A DNA stretch of 42,620 nucleotides from a virus: IMG/VR virus record IMGVR_UViG_3300036719_002804, one strand, 5' to 3'. The notes beneath the pieces were generated by a model. The model made no database searches. It saw nothing but the letters and a program-made list of their open reading frames with translations, and was not told the origin of the DNA. Position numbers and translations under genes: made by a program. Below are positions 30,757 to 42,620 of the stretch, one piece after another. Positions within the stretch are counted from its first letter, which is position 1; every line of letters starts with the position of its first letter.

Positions 30757-31049
30757 AGTGGTCCCTGGATGATGTCCGCATTATCGGGGACATCGTGGCG
30801 GCATCCCTGCTGGCCAGGATGGTCCAGCTGGTCGCCCTCAAGGCCTTCATCGAGCCCGCCGGCCACTTCATCGGCACCGCGTTCTGGCAGCGCCTCAGGG
30901 GCCTCTCCGGTGACCGGCTGCCGGCACTGCTGTGGGTGTCAGCGTTCCTGGAACACCCCGATGTAGACAATGCCCTTGGCGATCAGCGGCAGCACTCGAT
31001 CCCGCAGGTCGATGTTGTGCATCCGGAGGCAACCGAGTGTCGGGTGTAG
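30753..31049 (+). CDS. Hypothetical protein whose 3' end overlaps the convergent lysin gene
   Basis: ATGA overlap start. The last 111 nt are antisense to 30939..32102, so the true function of the C-terminal end is uncertain. Confidence 0.35.
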   Translation: MKWSLDDVRIIGDIVAASLLARMVQLVALKAFIEPAGHFIGTAFWQRLRGLSGDRLPALLWVSAFLEHPDVDNALGDQRQHSIPQVDVVHPEATECRV

Positions 31050-32102
31050 CGATTGCTTCGGCGCCCAGGCGCCAGGCCAGCCGCAAGCAGTGCCGCCACC
31101 GTGGAGCATGATGCCGGATCGACCGTTGCGGCTTTCCTGCCCTTCGAGGTCCACCATGTCGAAGCTGTACCAGCCGTAGCTCTCCGCGGTGTCTGATTGG
31201 AGCGGGTTGTTGCTCTCCTCCCAGTCCCGGTAGACCTTGCCGATCTGATACAGGCCTGGCGGGGTGTCGGTGTGGGGCTTGTTCCATTCCTTGTCGCGGC
31301 CCTGCCCCCGCGCAAGGCACGGCAGTGTCCACAGCAGCGCACCAGTGTGGCTGTAGGCACGCATCTGCTGGGTTCGGTCATTCACCAGGAGGTAGGTGTC
31401 GCCGGGCTTCATCGGCGCCTTCTTGCCCGGGCCGGCCAGGCCATCTTCTGCAGGGGTGCGGGGATCCAGCTCGAAGGTGGTCGGCTGGGCCGGTGCCGTC
31501 GTGGGGGCGTGTTGATCCATGAGGCGGATCAGCTTCTCGGCGTACTTCGGATCGGTGGCGTAGCCCTCCTTCACCAGCAGCCGGGCGGCATCGTTCCGGG
31601 TCGTTCCGCGGTTCACACCCTTGTTCTGCTCAAAATCCTTGTACCACCGGCTTACCAGGTGCTCGACAGCCGCGGTTAGCGATGGGAAGTCCTTGAACTC
31701 TGCCTGGATGGCGACATCTTTCCCGTTGATCACCTCGTTGGTGGTCTTGACCGTGCCGGCCCCCTTGAGCCCGAATGGGTTGTTGCGACCGCTGAGCGTT
31801 TTGCCCCACCCGCTTTCGAGCGCCCATTGAGCAGCCACCAGGTCGGGGTGTTTCGCGCCGGCTTTGGCAGCCATATTGCGGATCGCCTCCCAGTTGGCGG
31901 CCTGCGGCTTCTCGCTGAACTGCTGCGCCCACGGTGCGCCCTCCACCAGCAGGCCCGGGTCAGCCTTCCTGATCGCCCGCCCCAGCGCCAGGACGCCTTC
32001 GATCTGCTGTTGCTCGCCCTCGAACCATGTCCAGAAATCCAGCCATCGCTGGTCTGTGAGTTGCTTGCCGGGGTTTGCCATCATGGGTGCAGAGCTCTGC
32101 AC
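30939..32102 (-). CDS. Two-domain peptidoglycan hydrolase: glucosaminidase (FlgJ-like) plus C-terminal YkuD (L,D-transpeptidase fold) domain
   Basis: AAQWALESGWGKTLSGRNNPFGLKG...GYATDPKYAEKLIRL (glucosaminidase pattern). TPPGLYQIG...GIMLHGGG...HPTLGCLRMHNIDL (YkuD HG...S/TxGC(I/L)R motif). The start is either GTG at 32102 or the tandem ATG ATG at 32084/32081. Confidence 0.8.
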   Translation of the reverse strand: MQSSAPMMANPGKQLTDQRWLDFWTWFEGEQQQIEGVLALGRAIRKADPGLLVEGAPWAQQFSEKPQAANWEAIRNMAAKAGAKHPDLVAAQWALESGWGKTLSGRNNPFGLKGAGTVKTTNEVINGKDVAIQAEFKDFPSLTAAVEHLVSRWYKDFEQNKGVNRGTTRNDAARLLVKEGYATDPKYAEKLIRLMDQHAPTTAPAQPTTFELDPRTPAEDGLAGPGKKAPMKPGDTYLLVNDRTQQMRAYSHTGALLWTLPCLARGQGRDKEWNKPHTDTPPGLYQIGKVYRDWEESNNPLQSDTAESYGWYSFDMVDLEGQESRNGRSGIMLHGGGTACGWPGAWAPKQSLHPTLGCLRMHNIDLRDRVLPLIAKGIVYIGVFQER

Positions 32103-32107: not shown

Positions 32108-32379
32108 CAACCGTGGCTGATAGCGATTTGCGAGAGCTCTATGACGAGGGCCACAAGCTCATCGTCAATGAGCTGGTCGAAAAGATCCGCAACGGTGATG
32201 CCAGCACCGAGGATCGGCGCCTGTTCGCCCAGCTGATGAAGCAGAACAACATCAGCGCCGCACCAATCGAAGGCACGGCCGCGGCAGCCATGCAGCGAAT
32301 GGCCAGCAAGCTGCACAGCTTCGGCACGCTGGAAGAAAAGGCCAAGGTGGTGCCGATCCGCCCGCCGGCTACCGCCTGA
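32083..32379 (+). CDS. Small terminase subunit candidate (T7 gp18-like), on the opposite strand to TerL
   Basis: 98 aa and helical. FAQLMKQNNISAAP resembles the LLKDNNIT motif I associate with T7-group small terminases. This frame has high third-position GC, and the minus-strand frames translate to R/G/C-rich nonsense. The 3' end overlaps the TerL 3' end by 11 nt. Confidence 0.5.
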   Translation: MGAELCTHATVADSDLRELYDEGHKLIVNELVEKIRNGDASTEDRRLFAQLMKQNNISAAPIEGTAAAAMQRMASKLHSFGTLEEKAKVVPIRPPATA

Positions 32380-34132
32380 CACCACCCACGGCACCGCTGC
32401 CCTTGGGGATGATCCCCAGCGCCAACGCATCCACATGCGCGCCCGTCTCGTCGAACCACGCCGCCAGGGAGGCCTCCACCAGCTCCTCCTGGCGCCTCAG
32501 TGCCGCCCGCTCCTGGTCCTGGGCCGCGGCCTCCACGAAGTGGGCTGCAGCGATCGCCAGGGCGTCGATCCGGTCGTAGTACAGCAGGCTCCCCCGGTCG
32601 GTCGTGATCCGGCTCAGCTGGTACATCAGTGACCGGGGGTGGCCCGTGTCCACGTCCCGCTCCGCGCCCTCCCAGTCCTTGCGGATCAGCTCGCTGTTCA
32701 CCACGAGCCGGTGCTGCTGCACCAGTGGCGCCAGCACGTCGATGATGCGCCGCTCCTTCTGCCCAGCTGATCTGGGCGCCTCCTCGATTGAGCAGGGGTA
32801 GATGCGCTGCATCACCGGCTGCAGGATCTTGCTGAACATCCCATCGCCGAAGTTGGGCTCAGGGATCACAGCGTTCACTTCCCAGCGCTTGGCGATCTTC
32901 GCCAGCATCGCCAGCACATCGTCCTCATACCCGCGGGTGGTGCCACCGGATTCGAGCAGGAACAGGTTGCCGTTCAGCTCTGCCACCACCGCCCAGGCCA
33001 GTTCGTCACTGCCGCGGCCGGATGGGTCGATCGCCAGCACGCTGCGCCACTTCTCTGCCTTCGCCAGCCACCCCTGAACGGTCATCGGCCGGTGGTAGTA
33101 GCGGTCAGCACCCAGGCCCACGCATGGCAGCTCGTTGATCCGCTGCTCCGACCCAGATGCCCAGCTCACCACCTCCGGCAGCGCCTTCCCGTCCAGCGCC
33201 ATCACGATCAGATCGCCCAGGCGGATGGGGAACTTGTCGAGGGTGCTCAGCCGGCAGTTGAGCATGTACTGCAGCTGCCAGCTGGCCTTGGTGCTGCCCG
33301 TCTCCCGCTTGATCAGCTCCGTGTCATCGAACCGTTCGGGGTCGGTCGGCTCACCCACCAGCTGCGGATGGGTGGTCACCTCCTCCACCATCAGCGGGTC
33401 GAGGCAGCCGTCGTACACCTCCAGCTCATCCGGCTTGGGGTAGCGGGCCGGCCACATCCGCATCTTGTACCCGCGCTCGCGCACCAGCCGCCAGTACATC
33501 GAGGTCTCGAGGTGCGGCGTGCCGCGGAAGCTGATCTGCCGTGGTAGCGGCTGCCCCGCATCCGGCAGCAGGATCGACTCGAACTCCGTGGTGGCCTGCC
33601 ACAACCGCTCCTGCTTCAGCGGCGTGATCGAGTTGGTGAGCGTCTCGATGTCATCCGGGATGATCATCGTGGCCCGCTTGCCGGTCAACGAGGGGCTGAG
33701 GATCCCGCACGCCCGCACCGACGGCGCACCGTCACCGCCGATGATTGCTGGGCCCACATCAAACGCCAGCACGGACTGCCGCTGGTTATCCCTTGGCGCC
33801 AGGCACTGCAGCAGGTCGATCTCCCGGATGCACCGCTGCATGAAGGTGGTGATCTCCTCGGCCTTGGTTTCCGTCGCGCCAGGAATCAGGATCTTCTCCC
33901 CCTCCGGGTCGATGCGCAGCCGATGCAGCGCCCTGGCACCGCTGATCGTGCTCTTGGCAATCCCGCGGAACCCCACCGTCACCGTCCGGTCAGGGCCCAC
34001 CTCGTCCCACTCGCAGATCCGCAGCTGCTGCTTGGTCGGCTCATCCGCCAGCCCGAGCTCGCGGAGGATGTAGCAGAAGAAGTACGCGAACCGGCCGATG
34101 CCCAGTTCAGGCGGGATGGGGTAGACGCTCAT
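32369..34132 (-). CDS. terL: Large terminase subunit, T7 gp19-like
   Basis: ICEWDEVGPDRTVTVGFRGIAKS, SVLAFDVGP, LTGKRATMIIPDDIE, ISFRGTPH, LAIDPSGRGSDELAWAVV and EPNFGDGMF are colinear with T7 gp19 (FEWLEHGP...MAFRGIGKS, SFDVGP, LTGSRADIIIADDVE, LGTPQ, IDPSGRGKDETGYAV, ESNFGDGMF). Confidence 0.92.
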   Translation of the reverse strand: MSVYPIPPELGIGRFAYFFCYILRELGLADEPTKQQLRICEWDEVGPDRTVTVGFRGIAKSTISGARALHRLRIDPEGEKILIPGATETKAEEITTFMQRCIREIDLLQCLAPRDNQRQSVLAFDVGPAIIGGDGAPSVRACGILSPSLTGKRATMIIPDDIETLTNSITPLKQERLWQATTEFESILLPDAGQPLPRQISFRGTPHLETSMYWRLVRERGYKMRMWPARYPKPDELEVYDGCLDPLMVEEVTTHPQLVGEPTDPERFDDTELIKRETGSTKASWQLQYMLNCRLSTLDKFPIRLGDLIVMALDGKALPEVVSWASGSEQRINELPCVGLGADRYYHRPMTVQGWLAKAEKWRSVLAIDPSGRGSDELAWAVVAELNGNLFLLESGGTTRGYEDDVLAMLAKIAKRWEVNAVIPEPNFGDGMFSKILQPVMQRIYPCSIEEAPRSAGQKERRIIDVLAPLVQQHRLVVNSELIRKDWEGAERDVDTGHPRSLMYQLSRITTDRGSLLYYDRIDALAIAAAHFVEAAAQDQERAALRRQEELVEASLAAWFDETGAHVDALALGIIPKGSGAVGGVRR

Positions 34133-34262
34133 GCAGAGAGCCCCCCTGCCGAAGCAGAAGGGCCCTCACACCACCACCGAACCAGTAGAACCAGAGCTTT
34201 CGCTGCTGCTCTTGATTCAGTGGAACCCCGGGAACCACCCCAGCAGGTCATCACAAGGTAGC

Positions 34263-34592
34263 TCAACTGGCGGTGTAGCCCACTTCCACCCAGGTGCCCT
34301 CGTAGGCCAGCACCTTCTGGATCAGCTCGTTCTTGGTGAAGTTGTCCAGGTCCACCGTCTCCCCCCAGCTGGCCAGCAGCAGCGCCGCCAGCGCCGACTT
34401 GGTGAGTGCGTTCAGGAAGGTCACCCGCGCCTGCACCGCCGTGACCTGCGGGGCGATGAACGCTGGGGCTGCAGCACCGAGCTCAACAATCCGCCGCCAG
34501 ATGCGCCACAGCGGCACCACCGACTCGTTGATGCTCATCGCACACCGCACCGCGCTGTCCAGAAAGACATTGGCCGACTGGTTGGCGGACAT
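34263..34592 (-). CDS. Hypothetical protein (109 aa)
   Basis: Coding-like frame upstream of TerL on the same strand. No motif recognised. Confidence 0.45.
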   Translation of the reverse strand: MSANQSANVFLDSAVRCAMSINESVVPLWRIWRRIVELGAAAPAFIAPQVTAVQARVTFLNALTKSALAALLLASWGETVDLDNFTKNELIQKVLAYEGTWVEVGYTAS

Positions 34593-34620
34593 CGCTGCAG
34601 CGGTGGAGAGCAGTCACACC

Positions 34621-35076
34621 CTACCCAGCCTCATCCAACTCATCCAGCTTGGGGATCCTCGTCAGCTCGTCCCATTGGTGGAACAGGTAGCCGCGTTTCT
34701 CGCCGCCAATCCAGATCAGCCTGGGATTGAACAGGTAGTAGGCCTCATGCTTGACCGGATCGACCGCACGGGTCAGCAGGCCCTCCACCTTCAGCCGCTT
34801 GATCGAGGCCGCTACGTCCGGCTGCTTCATCTTCAGTTGCTCGGCCAACACCGTGCCCTTCACGTTGCAGCGGCCGGTGCGCCAGTTCATGTGGGCCACC
34901 AGGCCGAGCACCACCGCTGAATCCCTCAGCTGCAGCCGCCGCTCGCCCGTTGCCTCCAGAACGGCATCCATCAGCTCCTGGATCGAAATCATTGCGAAGT
35001 TCTCGCTGGCGCCCTGTCTAGGCTTCATGTGCTTGCGTTCATGTGCTGTCGCAGGCGGCCCGTACCTAGTAGCCAT
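34621..35076 (-). CDS. Winged-helix (MarR/Rep-like) DNA-binding protein, first gene of the leftward arm
   Basis: VVLGLVAHMNWRTGRCNVKGTVLAEQLKMKQPDVAASIKRLKVEGLLTR is a typical wHTH recognition segment. It borders the large noncoding region. Alternative internal ATG starts exist. Confidence 0.55.
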   Translation of the reverse strand: MATRYGPPATAHERKHMKPRQGASENFAMISIQELMDAVLEATGERRLQLRDSAVVLGLVAHMNWRTGRCNVKGTVLAEQLKMKQPDVAASIKRLKVEGLLTRAVDPVKHEAYYLFNPRLIWIGGEKRGYLFHQWDELTRIPKLDELDEAG

Positions 35077-35712
35077 CGGCCTCTAGGAATACCCACCACT
35101 CAATGGCCGTTGAGTGGTGGCAAGGGTTCTGCCATACCCCGAAACTATAACTACTTAGTCTGACCTCGACACGGAGTCCTCTCCACCACTGCAGACCTGT
35201 CGTGGCCTCTGATCTCTCTACTGGGGAGAAATTGAAATCCAGGGACAACAAGACGACCCACCCACAGCCGCAACAGCCCCAACCCGCCTACAGCCGGGCT
35301 CCACACCCACCAGCCCCGCCACGCCACACACCCCGCCGCCCAGCTTCCGCCGGGTTGGCCCCGGGGCGCACCAGCTGCATCCACGCAGAACTCTCGCCCG
35401 CCCTCGCCCCCGCTGCTGACCTGCCCCGTCGCTGAAGGTCGATTTTGGGTCGCGCGATCTGGTGGGGTCCCCTGCGCGTGGCGCAGCCGGTTCCCCCCTG
35501 CCGGGGGGCCTGCAGCCGCCCAGGGCCGGCCGGTGCGGGGCTGGGCCTGCCTGCTGGCGCCGGTGCTGGCCAGCAAGCACCCACCCTTGCCTGATCGCCT
35601 GCGGTGGCTGGGACTGCAGCGGATAGGGGATCCGCTGAGCTGAGCTGGTGGGCCTGCGGGTGAGTGCGAGCGCACCGGCCAGGGGCCTCGCGGTCCTATG
35701 CGTGCCCAGGCA

Positions 35713-35741
35713 TTACCACATACCTTACGAATTGTTACAAG
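35713..35741 (+). promoter_or_regulatory. Weak sigma70-like promoter candidate for the rightward accessory arm
   Basis: TTACCA (35713..35718), a 17-nt spacer, then TACAAG (35736..35741), within the only AT-richer patch upstream of 35812. Each hexamer matches consensus at only 4 of 6 positions. Confidence 0.25.
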
Positions 35742-35811
35742 TACACGATCGCCGGCCTACCACCACTCCGCACCTGTGCGGCCTGCCTACATACTCAGGA
35801 GGCCTGCAGCA

Positions 35812-36084
35812 ATGCAGATCACCACCACCGAACCTCGACAACTGATGACCTACACACGCGAGCCAGCCTGGCGCGCTGTGGCTGGGGCAGGGCATCGCAA
35901 GCGGCTGTCGCCGCGTCCGATACAACGCCGCACCACTGGCGCCGGCCGGCCTACTAGGGACTGGAGCGCACTGAGCCTGGCCTGCGTGGCGCTGTGGACG
36001 GCGGGGATGATCGCCGCGGCCCTGGTGCCGCCGGTGCCCGCTCTGCCGCCCACTGCAGCCATGCAGGACACGCTCAGGCGATGA
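35812..36084 (+). CDS. Small membrane protein (90 aa)
   Basis: AGGAGG lies 9 nt upstream of the ATG. TM segment LSLACVALWTAGMIAAALV. Confidence 0.5.
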   Translation: MQITTTEPRQLMTYTREPAWRAVAGAGHRKRLSPRPIQRRTTGAGRPTRDWSALSLACVALWTAGMIAAALVPPVPALPPTAAMQDTLRR

Positions 36085-36154
36085 CGACAGCCCGGAGGGG
36101 CTCAGGCCTCTCCCTGCTGCCCTCAGCAGCACACGACCACCAACCACCGAGCCG
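36083..36154 (+). repeat. Intercistronic double-hairpin element, copy A
   Basis: GACGACAGCCCGGAG flank. Stem 1 is GGAGGGGC/GCCTCTCC (one G.U pair). Stem 2 is CTGCTG/CAGCAG. A CA-rich tract and the ATG at 36155 follow. Confidence 0.7.
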
Positions 36155-36589
36155 ATGACCACGACCACACCACGGATCAACCACAGCTGGGCAGCCGATG
36201 CGGCCCGATGCGCTGGAAAGCGGTCCGAAGCGGCCCGGCTTGCCTGCGGCCTGAAGTGGAGAGGGGGGGAGCTGGGCTACATGGGCCCGCGTCATCCGAC
36301 GGAGGGATGCCCCCAAGAAACCTGGGACCGCTGGGAAGCCGCCGTCGAGGTGCACAGCGGACTGGTGGGCTTGCTGGTGTCGCACCGGCGCCGCCAATGC
36401 CACCGCTACCGGCAGGAGGCCCTCTCAATCGAGGGGGCCAAGCCCAAGGACTACAGCCCGCAAGAGATCGAGCTGGCCGGCCCTACCCAGGGCTGGCTGG
36501 CCCTCGACGGCGGCGCCCTGGGCCCGCTGTTCAACAACCACACCACCACCACCACCACCGATGGCCTTTCACTACCGCTCGACCGATGA
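36155..36589 (+). CDS. Hypothetical protein (144 aa) with poly-Thr tracts encoded by the (ACC)n repeat
   Basis: This frame has a plausible composition, whereas the alternative frames are R/P/G-rich. The start follows element A. Confidence 0.45.
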   Translation: MTTTTPRINHSWAADAARCAGKRSEAARLACGLKWRGGELGYMGPRHPTEGCPQETWDRWEAAVEVHSGLVGLLVSHRRRQCHRYRQEALSIEGAKPKDYSPQEIELAGPTQGWLALDGGALGPLFNNHTTTTTTDGLSLPLDR

Positions 36590-36749
36590 AGCCCGCGCCG
36601 CTCTCTATGACGCGGCGATGGTGCTTTTGCAGGCAGACCCGCAAATCAGGCTGCCGTTCTCACTGGGGACGATCACCGACCTGAGCAACCTTTGCCGCCG
36701 CATCGCCGAAGGGCAGCCGGTCTCATCGTCGCCCCTGCTCGACATCTGA
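36561..36749 (+). CDS. Hypothetical protein (62 aa)
   Basis: The ATG is immediately preceded by an (ACC)n tract at 36533..36560. Helical sequence. Confidence 0.45.
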   Translation: MAFHYRSTDEARAALYDAAMVLLQADPQIRLPFSLGTITDLSNLCRRIAEGQPVSSSPLLDI

Positions 36750-36817
36750 CACCAGCCCGGAGCCCTCACCGGCTCCCTGCTGGTCTCACCAGCACACCAC
36801 CACCACCACCACCACCG
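36748..36817 (+). repeat. Intercistronic double-hairpin element, copy B
   Basis: GACACCAGCCCGGAG flank. Stem 1 is GGAGCC/GGCTCC. Stem 2 is GCTGGT/ACCAGC. An (ACC)n tract and the ATG at 36818 follow. Confidence 0.7.
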
Positions 36818-37780
36818 ATGACCAAAACCGCAGCGCGCAAACGCAATACCTACGACGGGCCCACCAGCGAGGAGATCCTTGTCGCCGATCTGGTGGGCCT
36901 GATGGAGAGCTCCGAGCTCCCGCCATGGCGCCGTGAATGGAGCGGCCACCAGGGCGAGCACCGGAACCTCATCAGCGGCCACCACTACCGCGGGTGCAAC
37001 CCGATCCTGTTAGAGCTCGGCGCCATGATGCGCGGCCACACCCTGCCCTTGTGGGTGGGAGCAGCTGAGGCCAAGGGGCGCGGCTGGTGGCCCCGCAAAG
37101 GGACCAAGGCCGTCCGCATCGTGCGGCCGCAGCTGAACAAGCGCGAGGAGCGCGACGACGACGGCAAACCCAAAACCGGGCCCGATGGCACGGTGCTCGT
37201 AGCTGCCTGGGTCAGTTACAAGCCCTGCGCAGTGTTCAATGCCGCCGACCTGGTGGGCAACGACGACGAGACCGCGGCCACCCTGGCCGATGCGATCGCC
37301 GCGGCCCTGGGCCAGCAAAGCAACGACAAACCGCCAGCGGTTCGCCTGCCGGCCGCCGAGGCCATCCTCGAGGCCTGGCCGGTGCCCACAAGCTGGGGCG
37401 GGGTGAAGGCCTGCTACAGCCCAAGCCTGGATCAGATCAGGATGCCGGCCGCCGAGGCCTTCGCCAGCCGGGAGGCAATCCTGGCCACATGGGCCCACGA
37501 ACAGGCGCACAGCACCGGCCACAGCAGCCGGCTGGCTCGCGATATGGCCAACACCTTCGGCAGCAAGGCCTACGCCAAGGAGGAGCTCATCGCCGAGCTG
37601 GCCGCGGTGCTGGTCTGCTACCGGCTGCAGATCGGCTGCCAGCTGCAGAACCATGCCGCCTATCTCAAGGACTGGGCCCAGATCCTCAAAGAGGAGCCCA
37701 AAGCCCTGTTCAAGGTGCTGAGCCAGGCGCGCCAGGCCGCCGATCTGATCGCACCCGAGGCACCAGCCGAGGAGGCCTGA
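36818..37780 (+). CDS. ardC: ArdC-like antirestriction protein (N-terminal ssDNA-binding DUF1738-type domain plus C-terminal zincin metallopeptidase)
   Basis: ELPPWRREW...NLISGHHYRGCNPILL...WVGAAEAKGRGWWPRKGTKAVRIV (ArdC N-domain pattern). WAHEQAHSTGHSSRLARD...YAKEELIAELAAVLVC (HExxH-type ArdC protease motif). Confidence 0.8.
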   Translation: MTKTAARKRNTYDGPTSEEILVADLVGLMESSELPPWRREWSGHQGEHRNLISGHHYRGCNPILLELGAMMRGHTLPLWVGAAEAKGRGWWPRKGTKAVRIVRPQLNKREERDDDGKPKTGPDGTVLVAAWVSYKPCAVFNAADLVGNDDETAATLADAIAAALGQQSNDKPPAVRLPAAEAILEAWPVPTSWGGVKACYSPSLDQIRMPAAEAFASREAILATWAHEQAHSTGHSSRLARDMANTFGSKAYAKEELIAELAAVLVCYRLQIGCQLQNHAAYLKDWAQILKEEPKALFKVLSQARQAADLIAPEAPAEEA

Positions 37781-37786
37781 TCACCC

Positions 37787-37853
37787 GACACCAGCCCGGA
37801 GCGGATCCGTCCGCTCCCTGCTGGTCTCACACCAGCACACCACCACCACCACC
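37787..37853 (+). repeat. Intercistronic double-hairpin element, copy C
   Basis: GACACCAGCCCGGAG flank. Stem 1 is GGAGCGGA/TCCGCTCC. Stem 2 is GCTGGT/ACCAGC. An (ACC)n tract and the ATG at 37854 follow. Confidence 0.7.
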
Positions 37854-38123
37854 ATGAACAACACACCACCAACGACCGCGGAGCTGGCCCTGCTGGGCTG
37901 CTGGGCTGTGGCCCTGGCCCTGCGCACCCTGCTGGCCCATGGGCTGGCCCTAGCCCTGCTGCTGGCGGGCTGGCGGCCGGCCCGGCCCGCCGTGACCATC
38001 ACACCAGCACCAGCACCAGCACCAGCACCAGCACCAGAGCCGGCGCCCGCGCCCAAGAGATCACCGCGCGCCCGCAAGCGCACCACCACCAAACCCGCCC
38101 GCGTTCTGGAGGCGATCGCATGA
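37854..38123 (+). CDS. Membrane protein with a Pro-Ala repeat linker and basic C-terminus
   Basis: TM-like LALLGCWAVALALRTLLAHGLALALLLAG, then PAPAPAPAPAPEPAPAP. Confidence 0.5.
   Translation: MNNTPPTTAELALLGCWAVALALRTLLAHGLALALLLAGWRPARPAVTITPAPAPAPAPAPEPAPAPKRSPRARKRTTTKPARVLEAIA
38002..38037 (+). repeat. Hexanucleotide tandem repeat (CACCAG)x6 inside a CDS
   Basis: Six perfect CACCAG units encode the (PA)n tract. Confidence 0.9.
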
Positions 38124-38632
38124 GCATCACAGAGCAGGAAATCAAGCTGCACGCCCTATGGGCCATGGGCTCGCCTGATGGCGAGCGACTGGTAAGGATC
38201 GGCGCCAACCTCGCAGGCGTCAACCTCGCCAACGCCTACCTCGCACGCGCCAACTTTCTAGGGGCCAACTTCACAGGTGCCGACCTCACAGGTGCCGACC
38301 TCACAGGCACCGACCTCACAGGTGCCAACCTCACAGGTGCCGACCTCCACCGGGCCAACCTCCACCGGGCCAACCTCAAACGGGCCGAACTCACAAGATC
38401 CAACCTCAGACGGGCCGACCTCACAAGATCCAACCTCGCCGGGTCCAGCCTCAAGCGCGCACAGCTCAGAAGCGCCCAACTCGCAGGCGCCAACCTCGCA
38501 GGCGCCAACCTCGCAAAATCCAACCTGAGGGGCGCCAACCTCAGGGGCGCCAACCTCGCAGGCGCCAACCTCGCAGGCGCGCGCCTCGAAGGATCCAGCC
38601 TTCGGGAAAAGCCCGAGAAGAAGGAGTCATGA
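38120..38632 (+). CDS. Pentapeptide-repeat protein (Qnr/MfpA-like beta-helix, possible DNA mimic)
   Basis: About 25 consecutive A(N/D)LxG-type pentapeptides (ANLAGVNLANAYLARANFLGANFTGADLTGADL...). GGAGG RBS. ATGA overlap. Confidence 0.85.
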   Translation: MSITEQEIKLHALWAMGSPDGERLVRIGANLAGVNLANAYLARANFLGANFTGADLTGADLTGTDLTGANLTGADLHRANLHRANLKRAELTRSNLRRADLTRSNLAGSSLKRAQLRSAQLAGANLAGANLAKSNLRGANLRGANLAGANLAGARLEGSSLREKPEKKES

Positions 38633-38814
38633 ACATCAACCCGATCGAGGCCGCCCTTTTGGCCCAGCTGCTGCGCCCCAGGGTGGCGCTGCTCACCGAA
38701 CTGCTGGCCGCCCAGGTCCAGGCCCTGCCGCCCGGGGATGACAGCTGGGCCGACACCGAGGACCAGCTACAGATCGCCGCGGCCACCCTGCAGAAAGTGG
38801 AGGCGATCCGATGA
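38629..38814 (+). CDS. Hypothetical protein (61 aa)
   Basis: AAGGAG RBS. ATGA overlaps at both ends. Confidence 0.45.
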   Translation: MNINPIEAALLAQLLRPRVALLTELLAAQVQALPPGDDSWADTEDQLQIAAATLQKVEAIR

Positions 38815-38960
38815 GACGCCTGGCACGCTTGCTGCGGCCGCTGGGGGTGCCGGCGCTGATTGCCCTGGTGCTGACCCTCTGGCCGCTGTTCCAGTTCCTC
38901 TGGCTGGTGGCCCTGGCCATCGGCTGCGTGTGGCTGGTCATCAGGAGGCCGAAGCTGTGA
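38811..38960 (+). CDS. Small two-TM membrane protein (49 aa)
   Basis: Hand-translated: MRRLARLLRPLGVPALIALVLTLWPLFQFLWLVALAIGCVWLVIRRPKL. ATGA and GTGA overlaps. Confidence 0.4.
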   Translation: MRRLARLLRPLGVPALIALVLTLWPLFQFLWLVALAIGCVWLVIRRPKL

Positions 38961-39292
38961 GCGCCAGCCCTGCAGATGTGGCCGCCATGATCCGCGGGAT
39001 CCGGGCGGCCCAGCCGTACCTGAGCGCTGCTGCAGTTGAGGCACTCTTGCGCATCGCATCCGGCGCAGACAGCGCGCCCGAACTGCACCGGCAGATGGGA
39101 ATGAGCATCAGCCAGGCCGAGCGGCTGGTGCTCATCCTCTGCGGCCGTGGCACCACCGGGATCAAGGCCCGTCGCAGCAACCTGAGGCTGATCGAGCGGA
39201 CCAGACACCCCCATAAATCAGGGTTCCGACTGGCCCTAACCCAGAACGGCCGTGATTTGATAGCTAGTACATTTGCACCATCAACCCTATGA
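38957..39292 (+). CDS. Winged-helix (MarR-like) DNA-binding protein, 111 aa, GTG start
   Basis: LRIASGADSAPELHRQMGMSISQAERLVLILCGRG...RLIERTRHPHKSGFRLALTQNGRDL fits a wHTH pattern. GTGA overlap with the upstream stop. Confidence 0.5.
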   Translation: MSASPADVAAMIRGIRAAQPYLSAAAVEALLRIASGADSAPELHRQMGMSISQAERLVLILCGRGTTGIKARRSNLRLIERTRHPHKSGFRLALTQNGRDLIASTFAPSTL

Positions 39293-39434
39293 GGATAGCC
39301 CTGATCGCGTCGATCGCCCTGCCGTTCCCTACCGGCTGGCGGGAGCTGAACCTGTGGGTCGAGGAGCACGGCGGCCGGCGCCGCCTTGCTCTGCATCGGT
39401 GCCACACTACTAGTAACCGCTGCCACATAGGCCC

Positions 39435-39752
39435 ATGGATCTGGCTGCGCTTTCCCATGCCCTGGCCGTGTTTGCAGCGCAGGACCCTACTAGGTTCCCG
39501 CTCCACCAAGCGCGACTGTTCTTAGAGGTCGCCGCGACCGAGCCCTGCACCTTCGAGCACCTGGAGGAGGCCATGAACCTCACCAACTCCAGCATCTCCC
39601 GCAGTGTCTCGGCCTTGTCCGATCGCAACCGCCACGGCGACCGCGGTTACCGGCTGCTCACCGTGGAACGCGACCCGGACGAGGGGCGCCGATTCCTGGT
39701 TCGGCTCTCCAGCAAGGGCCGCACCCTGCTGCAGCAACTGCAGCGCATCTGA
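39435..39752 (+). CDS. MarR-family winged-helix transcriptional regulator
   Basis: LEEAMNLTNSSISRSVSALSD...GYRLLTVERDPDEGRRFLVRLSSKGRTLL is the classical MarR recognition helix plus wing (DPxDxR...LTxKG). Confidence 0.7.
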   Translation: MDLAALSHALAVFAAQDPTRFPLHQARLFLEVAATEPCTFEHLEEAMNLTNSSISRSVSALSDRNRHGDRGYRLLTVERDPDEGRRFLVRLSSKGRTLLQQLQRI

Positions 39753-39782
39753 ACACCACCACCACCACCACCGAGAACCACC

Positions 39783-40769
39783 ATGGCCGGATCAGTCCGG
39801 CGGACAGCTGATGGCTGGATCGCCGATGTCACCGTGGGCGGCACCCGCCGCACCGCCAAACGCAAGACCAAAGCCGAGGCCATCGAAGCCAAGCGCCAGA
39901 TGCTGGAGCTGCTGGTGGCCCGCCAGGCCGGCGAGCCCGACGGCATCACCATCAAGGACGCCCGCGGCCTCTCCCTGCGCATCCGCTGGGCCGGCAAGGC
40001 CTTCGAACGCACCGCCTCGATCTATTCCCAGGCCGCCGTGGATCACTTCGGCCCGCTCACCCAGCTGGGCAGCATCACCGCCCCGATGGTGAACGAGTGG
40101 CGCCAGCTGCTGCTGGCCGGCGGCAACCGCCCTGGCACCGTCAACGCCAAGACCAGCTGCCTGCGGGCCATGTTCAGCGATGCCGTGCTGCACGGCCACC
40201 TGGGGGCCATCCCGGCAATGCCCCGGCAGCTGACCAACCGCAACACCAAGGACCGCACCTTCACCGAGCAGGAGATCGCCGGCTTTTGCGATGCGTTCCA
40301 GGCCATGGGCCAGCCCGCCGCGGCCGATCTGTTCGTGTTCCTACTGGAGAGCTGCGCCCGCTGGGGCGAGATCGAAAAGCTGAAGCGCCAGGACGTGGAC
40401 ATCGAGCGGGCCCGCGTCACCTTCTGGGAGACCAAGGCCAACCGGGCCCGCTCGATCCCGCTCACCCGCCGGGCCATGGATGCCCTGCTGCCCCATCTGC
40501 CGGCCGTCCCGGGCCATCGGGTCTGGCCCTACCGCTACAGCGAGTTTCGCTGGCTGTTCAGCAAGGCCAAGGAGCAGCTGGGGATCACCGACGAGGCGCT
40601 GACCATCCACTGCACCCGGCACACCTGCGCCAGCAAGCTGGCCAGCCGTGGGATCCCGCTTCATCAGCTGATGACCTTCGGCGGGTGGACCTCGCTCCAG
40701 AGCGTGCAGCGCTACCTGCACCTGCACACCGAGGCCCTGGCCAGCTGCGTGGCAGCGCTGGAGGCCTGA
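39783..40769 (+). CDS. int: Tyrosine recombinase / phage integrase
   Basis: Catalytic pattern ESCARWGEI (Arg), HCTRHTCAS (HxxR), GGWTSLQSVQRYLH (Trp/His and the nucleophilic Tyr). Confidence 0.85.
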   Translation: MAGSVRRTADGWIADVTVGGTRRTAKRKTKAEAIEAKRQMLELLVARQAGEPDGITIKDARGLSLRIRWAGKAFERTASIYSQAAVDHFGPLTQLGSITAPMVNEWRQLLLAGGNRPGTVNAKTSCLRAMFSDAVLHGHLGAIPAMPRQLTNRNTKDRTFTEQEIAGFCDAFQAMGQPAAADLFVFLLESCARWGEIEKLKRQDVDIERARVTFWETKANRARSIPLTRRAMDALLPHLPAVPGHRVWPYRYSEFRWLFSKAKEQLGITDEALTIHCTRHTCASKLASRGIPLHQLMTFGGWTSLQSVQRYLHLHTEALASCVAALEA

Positions 40770-40813
40770 ACTCAATCGGATGTATCCACCAGCCGTAGAG
40801 TGACTGCCGAAAT

Positions 40814-40852
40814 GGATGCGGATCGGTGCCGAAATCGGCATCCTCCGCATCC
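40814..40852 (+). promoter_or_regulatory. Nested hairpin downstream of int
   Basis: Outer arms GGATGCGGA (40814..40822) and TCCGCATCC (40844..40852). Inner arms TGCCGA (40827..40832) and TCGGCA (40835..40840). Followed by CCCCAAAACCCCAAAA, not a U-tract. Confidence 0.5.
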
Positions 40853-40887
40853 ACCCCAAAACCCCAAAACCCAGGCCACGATTGCCC

Positions 40888-40930
40888 GGGGGTCTAGCTA
40901 TCTGGTGAAAGCAGCGGACTCATAAACCGT
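40888..40930 (+). other. tRNA(CAU)-like 5' half (acceptor 5' strand, D-arm, anticodon arm); candidate attP core or tRNA remnant
   Basis: GGGGGTC TA GCTA TCTGGTGA AAGC A GCGGA CTCATAA ACCGT. It has U8, a GG-containing D-loop and a 7-nt loop with U33-CAU-A37. No T-arm or acceptor 3' strand follows. Confidence 0.45.
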
Positions 40931-41042
40931 TTTCAAGTTCTGCATCCCTGCAGATGTCCCGCCGAAACTGCAGCCCGGGGCACACTGATCAACTCTGCGG
41001 GGGTGGGTTGTAATAAGTGCATCCCGCTACCGATGCCGCACC

Positions 41043-42620
41043 TTGTCTGCATCCGGCAGTTCATTCACCGCCCCCGAGGAGCAGCAGCGGCATCTGGAAC
41101 AGCGGGCCGAGGAGGCCGCTGCCAACCGCGCCGCGATCGACCGGGCCCGGCTCCGGCAGCAGGAGCGCGAGAGCGTCACCGAGTACGGCAGCGTCCTGCT
41201 CCGCGCCCACGGCGAGCGTGTGGCCCTGGCGCTGGAGCACACCATCGGCCTGGCCATCACCCGCCAAGTGGTGGCCGGCCCGTATCACGCCGGCATGCGG
41301 CTGCTGTTCCACATAGGCGAGAAGGGGCCCCGCTCGATCGCTGCCGTGGCGCTCACCGTGGTGCTGGACCGGATCAGCCGGCCCGGTTCCCATAGATCAA
41401 TGGCCAACGCCATCGGCAAGGCGATCGAGACCGAGATCAGAACGCTGCCGGTTGAGGACAGGGGCCAGGATCTGCTGCGCATCGGCCGCCGCCGGCACGG
41501 CAAGGCCCTGGCATCAACCGAGAACCTCAAGGCGCTCGGGATCACGGCCGCCCCCTGGACCCGCGAGGAGCGCTTCCAGGTGGGTGCTTTCCTGCTGGGG
41601 CTGATCATCACCGAAACCCAGCTGCTGCGCACCTTCAAGTCGGTGAGCTGTCGCGGCCTGCAGCTGGCGCCCGCTGCAGCGGTGGCCGAGATCATTGCCG
41701 CCAATCCGCCGCGGCCCAGGCCGGCCCGCAAGCTGCCGATGCTCACCCAGCCCAGGCCATGGGCGGGGATGACCGGCGGCGGCCACCTGGGCAACACGCA
41801 GAAGCTGGTGCGCTCACGCCAGGGCCACCCCCTCGACTATCTGACCACTGAGGCGCTGGCCCCTGCCCTGCGGGTGGTGAACACCCTGCAGGCGCAGCAG
41901 CTGGAGATCGACCCATGGGTGCTGGCGCATCAGCGCATCGCCTGGGATGCCTCGATCCGGGGCCTGTTCCCGGTGAGCAGCCGGCCTCCGGAGCTGCCGC
42001 CCATGCCCCATGAGCTGGTGGGGCGTGAGGCGATGGCCCAGCGCCACCGGGATCTCGATGCCTGCCACAACGACCGCAGGGTCAACGCCCGCATCCGCAA
42101 CAGCATCGAGACATCAATTCGCCAGGCCGAGCAACTGGCCGGCCAGCCGATCTGGTTCAGCTACTGCATGGACATGCGGGGCAGGGTCTACACCGCCAAC
42201 CGGGCCACGACTCACCAGGGGCCGGACTGGGAGAAGGCCCAGGTGCTGGTGGCCAATGCCCGGCCCTGCGATGACCGCGCCGCCGACTGGATCTTCAAGG
42301 CAGCCGCGATCCACTGGGGGATCAAGGGCAGCTGGGTGGACCGGCTGCAGTGGGGGCGGGACCAGCTGGAGCGGATGCTGGCCGCGGCCGAAGACCCGGT
42401 AGAGCGGGCCCACCTGTGGCGCGATGCCAAGGAGCCCTGGCAGTTCCTGCAGTGTTGCCGGGCCATGCAGCTATGGCTGGAGGATCCGTCCCAGCCGATC
42501 CGGCAGCTGGTGCGGCTGGACCAGACCACCAGCGGGCCGGGGATCATGGCCGCCCTGGTGCGCGACCAGGCCATTGCCCGGGCGTGCAACCTGATCGGCA
42601 CCACCCGCCACGATCTCTAC
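41043..42620 (+). CDS. T7-like single-subunit RNA polymerase, N-terminal part (ORF runs off the window end and continues at 1..952)
   Basis: Hand-translated frame: ...PRPWAGMTGGGHLGN (cf. T7 PKPWTGITGGGYWAN), IWFSYCMDMRGRVYTAN (cf. T7 IWFPYNMDWRGRVYAV), EPWQFLQCCRAM (cf. T7 SPFCFLAFCFEY). There is no in-frame ATG near the 5' end. TTG at 41043 is the best candidate, so the start is uncertain. The in-frame stop upstream is at 40986. Confidence 0.85.
   Translation, partial: MSASGSSFTAPEEQQRHLEQRAEEAAANRAAIDRARLRQQERESVTEYGSVLLRAHGERVALALEHTIGLAITRQVVAGPYHAGMRLLFHIGEKGPRSIAAVALTVVLDRISRPGSHRSMANAIGKAIETEIRTLPVEDRGQDLLRIGRRRHGKALASTENLKALGITAAPWTREERFQVGAFLLGLIITETQLLRTFKSVSCRGLQLAPAAAVAEIIAANPPRPRPARKLPMLTQPRPWAGMTGGGHLGNTQKLVRSRQGHPLDYLTTEALAPALRVVNTLQAQQLEIDPWVLAHQRIAWDASIRGLFPVSSRPPELPPMPHELVGREAMAQRHRDLDACHNDRRVNARIRNSIETSIRQAEQLAGQPIWFSYCMDMRGRVYTANRATTHQGPDWEKAQVLVANARPCDDRAADWIFKAAAIHWGIKGSWVDRLQWGRDQLERMLAAAEDPVERAHLWRDAKEPWQFLQCCRAMQLWLEDPSQPIRQLVRLDQTTSGPGIMAALVRDQAIARACNLIGTTRHDLY
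42494..42620. repeat. Terminal overlap copy 2, identical to 1..127
   Basis: Exact 127-nt identity with the window start. Confidence 0.95.

Follow-up and report, generated by a model that had tools for sequence, protein, structure and literature searches.

The window analyzed in this study is the whole 42,620-nucleotide (nt) stretch of IMG/VR virus record IMGVR_UViG_3300036719_002804, and the subject is a repeated RNA element that occupies three gaps between genes in its early block (positions 35812 to 40769), which precedes the RNA polymerase gene. This block includes small open reading frames (ORFs) at 35812 to 36084, 36155 to 36589, and 36561 to 36749, an ArdC-like antirestriction gene (36818 to 37780), an ORF at 37854 to 38123, a pentapeptide-repeat gene (38120 to 38632), a weak MarR-like ORF (39435 to 39752), and a tyrosine integrase gene (39783 to 40769; PF00589, phrog_1), all on the + strand. 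A preliminary description had reported one layout in all three stop-to-start gaps, namely, a conserved flank, two hairpins joined by a short linker, and a CA-rich tract before the ATG, and the listed sequence features were all found at their positions. We conclude that the repeats are copies of one previously uncatalogued structured RNA element of freshwater phage contigs. As judged from sequence comparison, this element is a three-segment, two-state RNA structure in which both pairings are kept by compensatory change.

The three copies in the early block

In the window copies, the flank reads GAC(G/A)(A/C)CAGCCCGGAG and is followed by hairpin 1, whose stem is GGAGGGGC/GCCUCUCC with one G.U pair in copy 1 (36094 to 36113), GGAGCC/GGCUCC in copy 2 (36759 to 36776), and GGAGCGGA/UCCGCUCC in copy 3 (37798 to 37817). 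The linker CTCC-CTG leads to hairpin 2, with CUGCUG/CAGCAG or GCUGGU/ACCAGC as its stem, and then come CAGCACAC, the CA-rich tract, and the ATG. The pattern CCGGAG-N(4-24)-CTCCCTG occurred three times in the window versus 0.14 times expected, and none of 100 shuffles reached three. A covariance model built solely from copies on other contigs recovered all three on the + strand (copy 2, 56.4 bits; copy 1, 49.7 bits; copy 3, 47.6 bits) and scored their reverse complements at ∼12 bits; searching the 42.6-kb window with this model revealed no further copy, the next best match having 13.6 bits.

Both hairpins proposed earlier are real, while the fold as a whole is better described as one extended irregular hairpin, to which hairpin 2 is an exclusive alternative that reuses the CUGCUG segment. 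The "conserved flank" is not single stranded; it pairs with this segment and so makes up the 5' side of a lower stem. In the minimum-energy fold of copies 2 and 3, a single extended hairpin is formed with the 5' flank paired with CUGCUGGU; the paired segments are GAC-ACCAGC and GCUGGU-CUC, and a 2x2 internal loop (CC/CU) separates them from hairpin 1 above.

The extended hairpin of copy 2 spans 36747 to 36788, and the stop codon TGA (36747 to 36749) is paired with UCA (36786 to 36788). Its lower stem is ACCAGC (36751 to 36756) with GCUGGU (36779 to 36784), the internal loop has CC opposite CU, the alternative hairpin 2 is UGCUGGU-CUC-ACCAGCA (36778 to 36794), and a (CAC)n leader (36795 to 36817) ends at the ATG of the ArdC-like gene (36818). 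Copy 3 is built in the same way at 37787 to 37828, with GA (37787 to 37788) paired with UC (37827 to 37828), the lower stem ACCAGC (37790 to 37795)/GCUGGU (37820 to 37825), CC opposite CU in the internal loop, a UCCG loop on hairpin 1, the alternative hairpin 2 UGCUGGU-CUCAC-ACCAGCA (37819 to 37837), and a (CAC)n leader (37838 to 37853) ending at the ATG at 37854; here, the ArdC stop codon (37778 to 37780) lies 7 nt upstream of the helix. In copy 1, the extended irregular hairpin covers 36082 to 36125, and the stop codon TGA (36082 to 36084) forms the helix base. The lower stem pairs CAGC (36088 to 36091) with GCUG (36116 to 36119), the internal loop has CC (36092 to 36093) opposite CU (36114 to 36115), and hairpin 1 comprises 8 base pairs (bp) and a UCAG loop; hairpin 2 is UGCUGC-CCUCA-GCAGCA (36115 to 36131), and the C/A-rich leader (36132 to 36154), which has no Shine-Dalgarno motif, ends at the ATG at 36155.

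Since the CUGCUG segment serves both the lower stem and hairpin 2, the two folds are mutually exclusive. With constrained folding, the extended and two-hairpin forms had energies of −23.8 and −24.1 kcal/mol in copy 1, −24.6 and −20.8 kcal/mol in copy 2, and −27.4 and −24.7 kcal/mol in copy 3, corresponding to an advantage of the extended fold of −0.3, 3.8, and 2.7 kcal/mol, respectively. Compared with shuffled controls, folding energies were markedly low in copies 2 and 3 (z score of −6.0) and weakly so in copy 1 (z score of −1.7). The energy of copy 1 taken alone thus gives weak support, and it is the family-wide covariation that settles the question of structure.

Covariation across a family of freshwater phage contigs

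Exact and degenerate core patterns revealed copies on more than 100 IMG/VR viral contigs. These searches gave 135 distinct pattern matches; rescanning by structure, with changes in the core permitted, raised the total to 173 distinct elements, and the covariance model returned ∼280 matches across the retrieved loci. In a scan of 185,579 prokaryotic genomes with the exact core, the stretches listed (at least 120) were chance coding matches except for those on two phage-like contigs, L026, which is probably a mis-binned Lake Mendota contig, and L098, a contig of a "Prochlorococcaceae" metagenome-assembled genome that is nearly identical to the early region of the window. As far as the exact core and the matches listed go, the element is likely absent from host chromosomes. 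Rfam 15 gave no match in the window at gathering thresholds, and none of the matches at an E value of ≤5 overlapped a copy; searching the tandem arrays described below against Rfam yielded sub-threshold microRNA-like hairpin noise only. The paper on the freshwater Synechococcus phage S-SRP02, the sole cultured relative, does not mention hairpins, promoters, or terminators, and full-text literature searches returned no description of such repeats. The element is a well-supported structured RNA family missing from Rfam.

From its base upward, the helix consists of UGA/UCA, a pyrimidine-pyrimidine mismatch, a 6-bp lower stem, the 2x2 loop, and a variable upper stem. It spans alignment columns 3 to 44 (3 plus 6 plus 6 to 10 bp, plus the 1x1 and 2x2 loops) and reaches ∼18 to 22 stacked positions, or roughly two helical turns; among the distinct hairpins, upper stems of 6 to 12 bp were seen. 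Pairs were counted both on a gap-free subset and on a model-based alignment. In the 41 gap-free copies, 96.1% of the cells were paired, whereas shuffled copies gave 84.6% and sliding the partners gave no more than 53%, and the two free lower-stem positions were occupied by CG, GC, GU, AU, and UA. The preliminary description had argued from three copies for selection on structure rather than on sequence, and the wider family bears this out: among 127 distinct model-aligned copies, both-sided changes occurred in 12 of 15 pairs. Pairing was also preserved in these model-aligned copies (95.3% of cells), and none of 500 shuffles reached any of five measures. Slid controls were 43 to 60% paired, indicating that the pairing register is specific.

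Even the core, which the search patterns had held constant, covaries. Once variation was allowed, CAGC/GCUG was replaced by UGGC/GCCA (10 distinct copies), CCAC/GUGG, CAUC/GAUG, and UCUC/GAGG. Among 173 copies, the conserved pyrimidine-pyrimidine mismatch was C-C in 116. The internal loop, with (C/A)C facing CU, was near-invariant across the family. The base of the helix read U-G-A/U-C-A after an ORF and mostly A-G-A/U-C-U elsewhere.

Hairpin 2 takes its 5' arm from the CUGCUG(NN) segment, which is also the 3' arm of the lower stem, and its 3' arm from a downstream repeat of the 5' flank. The stem 2 covariation originally noted on comparing copy 1 with copies 2 and 3 reflects a shift of register by two nucleotides, and true compensation is seen only in the wider family, where the arms covary as UGCUGC/GCAGCA, UGCUGG/CCAGCA, UGCUGGU/ACCAGCA, UGCUGCC/GGCAGCA, GUGGG/CCCAC, and UGAUGUCUU/AAGACAUCA, with CUGCUCUC/GAGAGCAG and CCACCC/GGGUGG in the class without a CA leader. 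For both pairings, a copy's own partner segment bound 2.3 to 3.0 kcal/mol better than swapped partners, and none of 1,000 permutations was as good. The mean advantage of the extended fold was 2.3 kcal/mol in 102 CA-leader copies and 5.3 kcal/mol in the 71 others. Moreover, the fragment that begins on the 3' side of the internal loop folded into a hairpin from its second nucleotide in 94 of the 102 copies.

Several features distinguish RNA from DNA as the level of selection. Hairpin 1 contained 107 G.U pairs versus 1 A.C pair in the CA-leader class and 59 versus 2 in the other class; this excess is partly biased because the search patterns allowed Y on the 3' arm, and interior pairs that the patterns left unconstrained still included 15 and 17 G.U pairs. 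Tetraloops closed 93 of 118 distinct hairpin 1 sequences, 44 being UNCG and 11 GNRA and mostly with a C-G closing pair, while these types make up 1.6% and 3.1% of possible tetraloops, respectively. The special stability of UNCG and GNRA tetraloops is a property of RNA. Every copy runs in the direction of its flanking genes. The preference for G.U over A.C, the tetraloops, and the strand-asymmetric model scores together indicate selection on the sense RNA, and on the same three grounds selection at the level of DNA or of a cruciform was ruled out.

Gene context, exchange points, and tandem arrays

The element is closely tied to the ends of genes. In 85 of 99 CA-leader copies, the stop codon of the upstream ORF was the UGA of the helix base, whereas frame alone predicts one in three. 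In all 102 CA-leader copies, the start of an ORF of at least 40 codons lay 29 to 85 nt (median, 37 nt) past GCUG. The final 20 nt before the start were 52% C, 33% A, 10% G, and 5% U, and the Shine-Dalgarno core was present in 15 and absent from 74 of 89 distinct leaders. Five early genes of the window (starting at 36155, 36561, 36818, 37854, and 39783) have C/A leaders, and none of its middle or late genes does. Two of these leaders, at 36541 to 36560 (before the ATG at 36561) and 39753 to 39782 (before the integrase ATG at 39783), consist of (CAC)n or of C and A only and have no hairpin element. In addition, a (CACCAG)n hexanucleotide run occurs at 37990 to 38030 inside the ORF at 37854 to 38123, where it specifies a Pro-Ala repeat of a small protein that is probably membrane associated.

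Conventional transcription signals were sought in 34100 to 41200. No sigma-70-like promoter was found (0 sites), and no U-tract terminator was found on the + strand near the three elements or between early genes, so a host sigma-70 promoter and a U-tract terminator were both ruled out. The four terminator-like matches (3.1 expected from shuffles) comprised three on the − strand and one at 34807 to 34823, upstream of the early genes. A U-tract follows neither hairpin, and the earlier statement that the hairpins are not classical intrinsic terminators was therefore upheld. A promoter for a phage RNA polymerase was likewise ruled out, as the middle and late regions contain no copy and the conserved block upstream of GGAG is only ∼11 nt long.

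PHROG and Pfam scans revealed a T7-like gene set. The C-terminal part of a T7-like RNA polymerase is encoded at 17 to 952, the gene running across the window ends, and the + strand also encodes a gp2.5-like SSB, exonuclease, portal, scaffold, major capsid, tail tubes A and B, internal virion proteins, and a tail fiber. The endolysin (30939 to 32102) and T7-type large terminase (32369 to 34132) genes are on the − strand, whereas all other structural and replication genes are on the other one; S-SRP02 has the same arrangement, which is unusual among T7-like phages. With a G+C content of 66%, the window is the genome of an Autographivirales-type podophage, in circularly permuted form, and belongs to the S-SRP02 type. 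Among GenBank phages, nucleotide similarity was found for S-SRP02 alone (69% across the integrase region); this phage shares the unusual architecture of the genome and early block, and has an annotated MarR gene at the position matching that of the MarR-like ORF of the window. Highly iterated palindrome 1 (HIP1; GCGATCGC), a marker of cyanobacterial hosts, was not enriched in the window (3 observed versus 2.1 expected). By its position, the early block is inferred to be the counterpart of the host-transcribed early region of T7. The analogy with T7 early mRNA drawn in the preliminary description is thus well placed, the window being a T7-like genome in which the copies separate early genes and precede the RNA polymerase gene.

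Upstream of the early genes, two − strand ORFs lie divergently within 34263 to 35076, and that at 34621 to 35076 has a weak, sub-threshold MarR-type match. A noncoding stretch of ∼700 nt (35076 to 35812) separates them from the early genes, and ∼35430 to 35850 is conserved at 69 to 81% in several related contigs; the stretch may be a lysogeny-switch or early-promoter region.

BLAST comparison of the early region with related loci showed that shifts in identity and insertions or deletions (indels) coincide with elements. Contig L008 matched the window at 83% up to 36078 and then had one element directly before ArdC, so that the genes at 36155 to 36749 plus one element are present in the window and absent from L008. 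ArdC itself was 69 to 74% identical in L008 and L098, between flanks with 83 to 96% identity. Past copy 3, L008, L013, and L098 had an extra small ORF bracketed by CA tracts, and these otherwise 92 to 96% identical contigs lacked the pentapeptide gene (38132 to 38627), a clean indel at which stop and start codons overlap and which no repeat element flanks. The conserved DNA of the element thus acts as a crossover point for early-gene exchange, and ordinary homologous recombination is sufficient to account for all of these patterns.

The element is also carried by another type of phage, characterized by a large primase, a superfamily 2 helicase, and a phrog_4652 protein. In these contigs, it forms noncoding tandem arrays with the same core, internal loop, and competing hairpin 2, located downstream of the conserved phrog_4652 gene. 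The arrays were found at 3790 to 4600 of contig L193 (seven copies at 3792 to 4572), 6860 to 7610 of L180 (− strand; six copies), 8040 to 8740 of L205 (six copies), and 4300 to 5000 of L191 (− strand). Their period is 120 to 145 nt, with spacers of GGCNN pentamers, e.g., GGCAUGGCGAGGCGUGGCAU; Tandem Repeats Finder reported nothing on the arrays, the spacers being too divergent. The helix base is AGA/UCU, and no ORF precedes the copies, indicating that the structure is independent of a terminating ribosome. The array units may be processed small RNAs or protein-binding decoys. That unrelated phage types have the element in common favors a shared, probably host, partner.

Predicted function and relation to known systems

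The element is very probably a functional cis-acting RNA structure. With a probability of roughly 0.4, our preferred reading of its function is that of a predicted RNase III-type processing and stability site of the early mRNA, followed by an unstructured C/A leader. The extended helix would form first, cotranscriptionally, and a host double-strand-specific endonuclease of the RNase III family would cut it at or next to the internal loop, comparable to the cutting of T7 R sites. If the cut falls on the 3' side of this loop, hairpin 1 would stay with the upstream message as a barrier to 3' exonucleases, while the freed CUGCUG segment would snap onto the downstream repeat to form hairpin 2 within 1 to 2 nt of the new 5' end. 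In this terminal position, hairpin 2 would shield the downstream message from 5'-end-dependent decay; in work on ompA of Escherichia coli, a stem-loop near the 5' end reportedly gives such protection. The unstructured C/A leader would then permit initiation without a Shine-Dalgarno sequence, and, as a by-product, recombination at the conserved DNA would allow phages to exchange early-gene cassettes. This cut-and-refold model would explain why both pairings are conserved. RNase III of E. coli has substrates that typically span two helical turns, and internal loops confine cutting to one strand, leaving protective 3' hairpins (PMC1540722). Cyanobacterial genomes encode between one and three RNase III proteins and, in addition, Mini-III, the Bacillus homologue of which is sequence specific (PMC10989914).

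A number of observations weigh against this reading or the evidence for it. A covariance-model search found no copy in S-SRP02. The commonest CA-leader subtype, GACGA...GCUGCC, to which copy 1 belongs, has an A-C mismatch in a weak lower stem and two folds equal in energy. The 127-copy alignment was fitted to the model, and its sequences are related metagenomic copies, meaning that the counts are of nonindependent events; core invariance is partly by construction, since some copies were collected with patterns that fixed the core. A bulge-helix-bulge arrangement can allow E. coli RNase III to bind without cutting (PMC1540722), and the helix, being interrupted twice, resembles such arrangements. 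Canonical bacterial RNase III has little sequence specificity, which does not obviously explain the near-invariant CAGC-CC-GGAG/CUCC-CU-GCUG; the strict core sequence suggests a more specific reader. Finally, a stop codon exactly at the helix base could reflect a translation-linked function instead.

An unlikely but by no means negligible alternative is an uncleaved stability and insulation module, in which untranslated early RNA is kept either paired or free of U and G, giving RNase E no entry, and the next start region is shielded from pairing with neighboring coding sequence. The two folds would then keep the G-rich segment always paired, whether or not a terminating ribosome opens the 5' arm. 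The leaders, with 84% C plus A and 5% U, fit this idea, as does the rest of the gap, which is all base paired. Induction of RNase E, a single-strand-specific enzyme, is known for T7-like cyanophages, and in P-SSP7 an early MarR-type protein raises host RNase E while phage RNAs are protected by duplex formation (PMC9692554); MarR-like genes are present here as the weak ORFs of the window and the annotated S-SRP02 gene in matching position. A generic need for pairing, however, leaves unexplained the near-invariant core, the internal loop, and the pyrimidine-pyrimidine mismatch, as well as the tandem noncoding arrays of other phages.

An operator for a sequence-specific RNA-binding protein of host or phage, with the core of 4 bp, 2x2 loop, and 4 bp as the site, is suggested by the combination of a fixed core and a freely varying distal stem, a typical signature of protein-binding hairpins. 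Binding could repress, time, or antiterminate early expression. For comparison, HK022 put and lambda nut RNAs act on RNA polymerase, and coat or RegA-type repressors act on translation. The sharing of the element by T7-like and unrelated primase/helicase-type phages also favors a common, probably host, partner. We nevertheless regard an operator as rather improbable, because the flanking small ORFs have no Pfam or PHROG matches, and no RNA-binding candidate was evident in the best 30 of ∼200 protein matches between the two phage classes; of these, the ones that could be placed through the window's own genes were of lysis and packaging types, and the other shared ORFs were unannotated. Furthermore, put and nut sites occur once per operon rather than in each gap, and the distance of 45 to 100 nt between the core and the next start codon is long for an operator that blocks translation sterically.

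Of similarly low probability is a broader reading in which unrelated phages have independently taken up the element as a portable RNA junction with two states, and a host factor of freshwater picocyanobacteria reads it. It would split and stabilize early messages in T7-like phages, and the arrays would release small RNAs of ∼80 to 100 nt made of GGCNN repeats, possibly as decoys for a host RNA- or DNA-binding protein. On this reading, cleavage-triggered refolding, in which a cut helix passes its 3' arm on to the next RNA as a 5' cap hairpin, would amount to a novel principle for the design of operon processing.

We consider it doubtful that the element is a translation-linked switch, in which a ribosome at the helix-base UGA melts the 5' arm and lets hairpin 2 form, coupling downstream to upstream translation by, e.g., ribosome retention or reinitiation on the C/A tract. 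A stop codon at the helix base far more often than frame would place it there, the closeness of the two folds in energy, and the lack of a Shine-Dalgarno core in most leaders are what such a switch would lead one to expect. Yet the downstream C/A start region is unpaired in both folds and is neither exposed nor hidden by a change between them, the AGA-based version occurs in tandem arrays that have no reading frames, and the stop codon at copy 3 of the window precedes the helix by 7 nt.

A function at the DNA level, with the elements as recombination signals bounding mobile early-gene cassettes in the manner of integron attC sites, which are single-strand hairpins, or of T4-type promoter/stem-loop cassettes, is more improbable still. 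Homology breaks and indels between close relatives do fall at elements, as the L008 and ArdC cases show, and a tyrosine integrase is encoded nearby. The C-G-closed UNCG and GNRA tetraloops, however, are a signature of RNA stability, the attC R-box sequences (GTTRRRY/RYYYAAC) are missing, the repeat has no promoter, other indels (the pentapeptide gene and the small ORFs by CA tracts) occur without elements, and ordinary homologous recombination would be expected to cause exchange at any conserved block of 40 nt. The least tenable reading, that of factor-independent terminators or attenuators lacking a U-tract, can appeal to stable GC-rich hairpins with UUCG-type loops directly after stop codons, but C/A tracts instead of U-runs follow both folds, and up to seven tandem copies, or copies before every early gene including essential ones, would be self-defeating.

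Should the preferred processing model hold, T7-style processing of early mRNA would extend beyond enterobacterial phages in a structurally distinct counterpart; to our knowledge, the high-GC freshwater cyanobacterial hosts lack Rho and have several RNase III paralogues. The element would also offer a natural substrate of ∼45 nt with a fixed core for defining recognition by cyanobacterial RNase III enzymes or another factor, and a ready intercistronic part (stop codon, processing hairpin, 5' cap hairpin, and leader without a Shine-Dalgarno sequence) for engineering cyanobacterial operons. Irrespective of function, the element marks the breakpoints at which accessory early genes (ArdC and others) are exchanged among these phages.

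Several known kinds of repeat resemble the element in part. Repetitive extragenic palindromic (REP) sequences and bacterial interspersed mosaic elements (BIMEs) are likewise short GC-rich intercistronic hairpins, and such hairpins can stabilize upstream mRNA. The element differs in that its true copies among the genome matches listed for the exact core were confined to two phage-like contigs, so it is likely not dispersed in hosts, and in being oriented with transcription, having a specific internal loop, and being tied to stop and start codons. Integron attC sites share with it a paired base, an unpaired central spacer, a variable terminal stem, strand specificity, the presence of one site per promoterless cassette, and a tyrosine recombinase gene nearby. 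Sites of this kind, whose boxes have extrahelical bases, are recombined by an IntI integrase. They are set apart by the R/L box consensus (RYYYAAC...GTTRRRY), in place of which the element has the core CAGC-CC-GGAG...CUCC-CU-GCUG, and by the RNA-typical tetraloops of the element and an integrase of the general phage families PF00589/phrog_1. The promoter early stem-loop (PeSL) cassettes of T4-type phages, whose properties we take as general background, are also repeated blocks between small early genes, located in a plastic region and forming points of gain, loss, and exchange. Unlike them, the element has no early sigma-70 promoter (no site in 34100 to 41200, and almost no T after the hairpins), and it has a strictly conserved covarying core and two alternative folds.

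The closest resemblance is to the RNase III signals R0.3, R0.5, R1, R1.1, and R1.3 of T7, part of whose properties as compared here are general background. They, too, occupy several gaps between cistrons in a T7-like podophage's early operon, share a core, have no terminator function, and have a 3' hairpin on the expected products. Both are irregular hairpins of about two turns with an internal loop (PMC1540722). The element departs from the T7 sites in its symmetric 2x2 loop and second conserved mismatch, in the repeat of the 5' arm that creates an exclusive second hairpin, in its fixed core and C/A-only leader, and in a cyanobacterial host with several RNase III paralogues, its cleavage being predicted. 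Thus, T7 early RNase III signals are the nearest known kind, from which the element is distinguished by its architecture of three segments and two states, by its fixed core, and by being coupled to a C/A leader.

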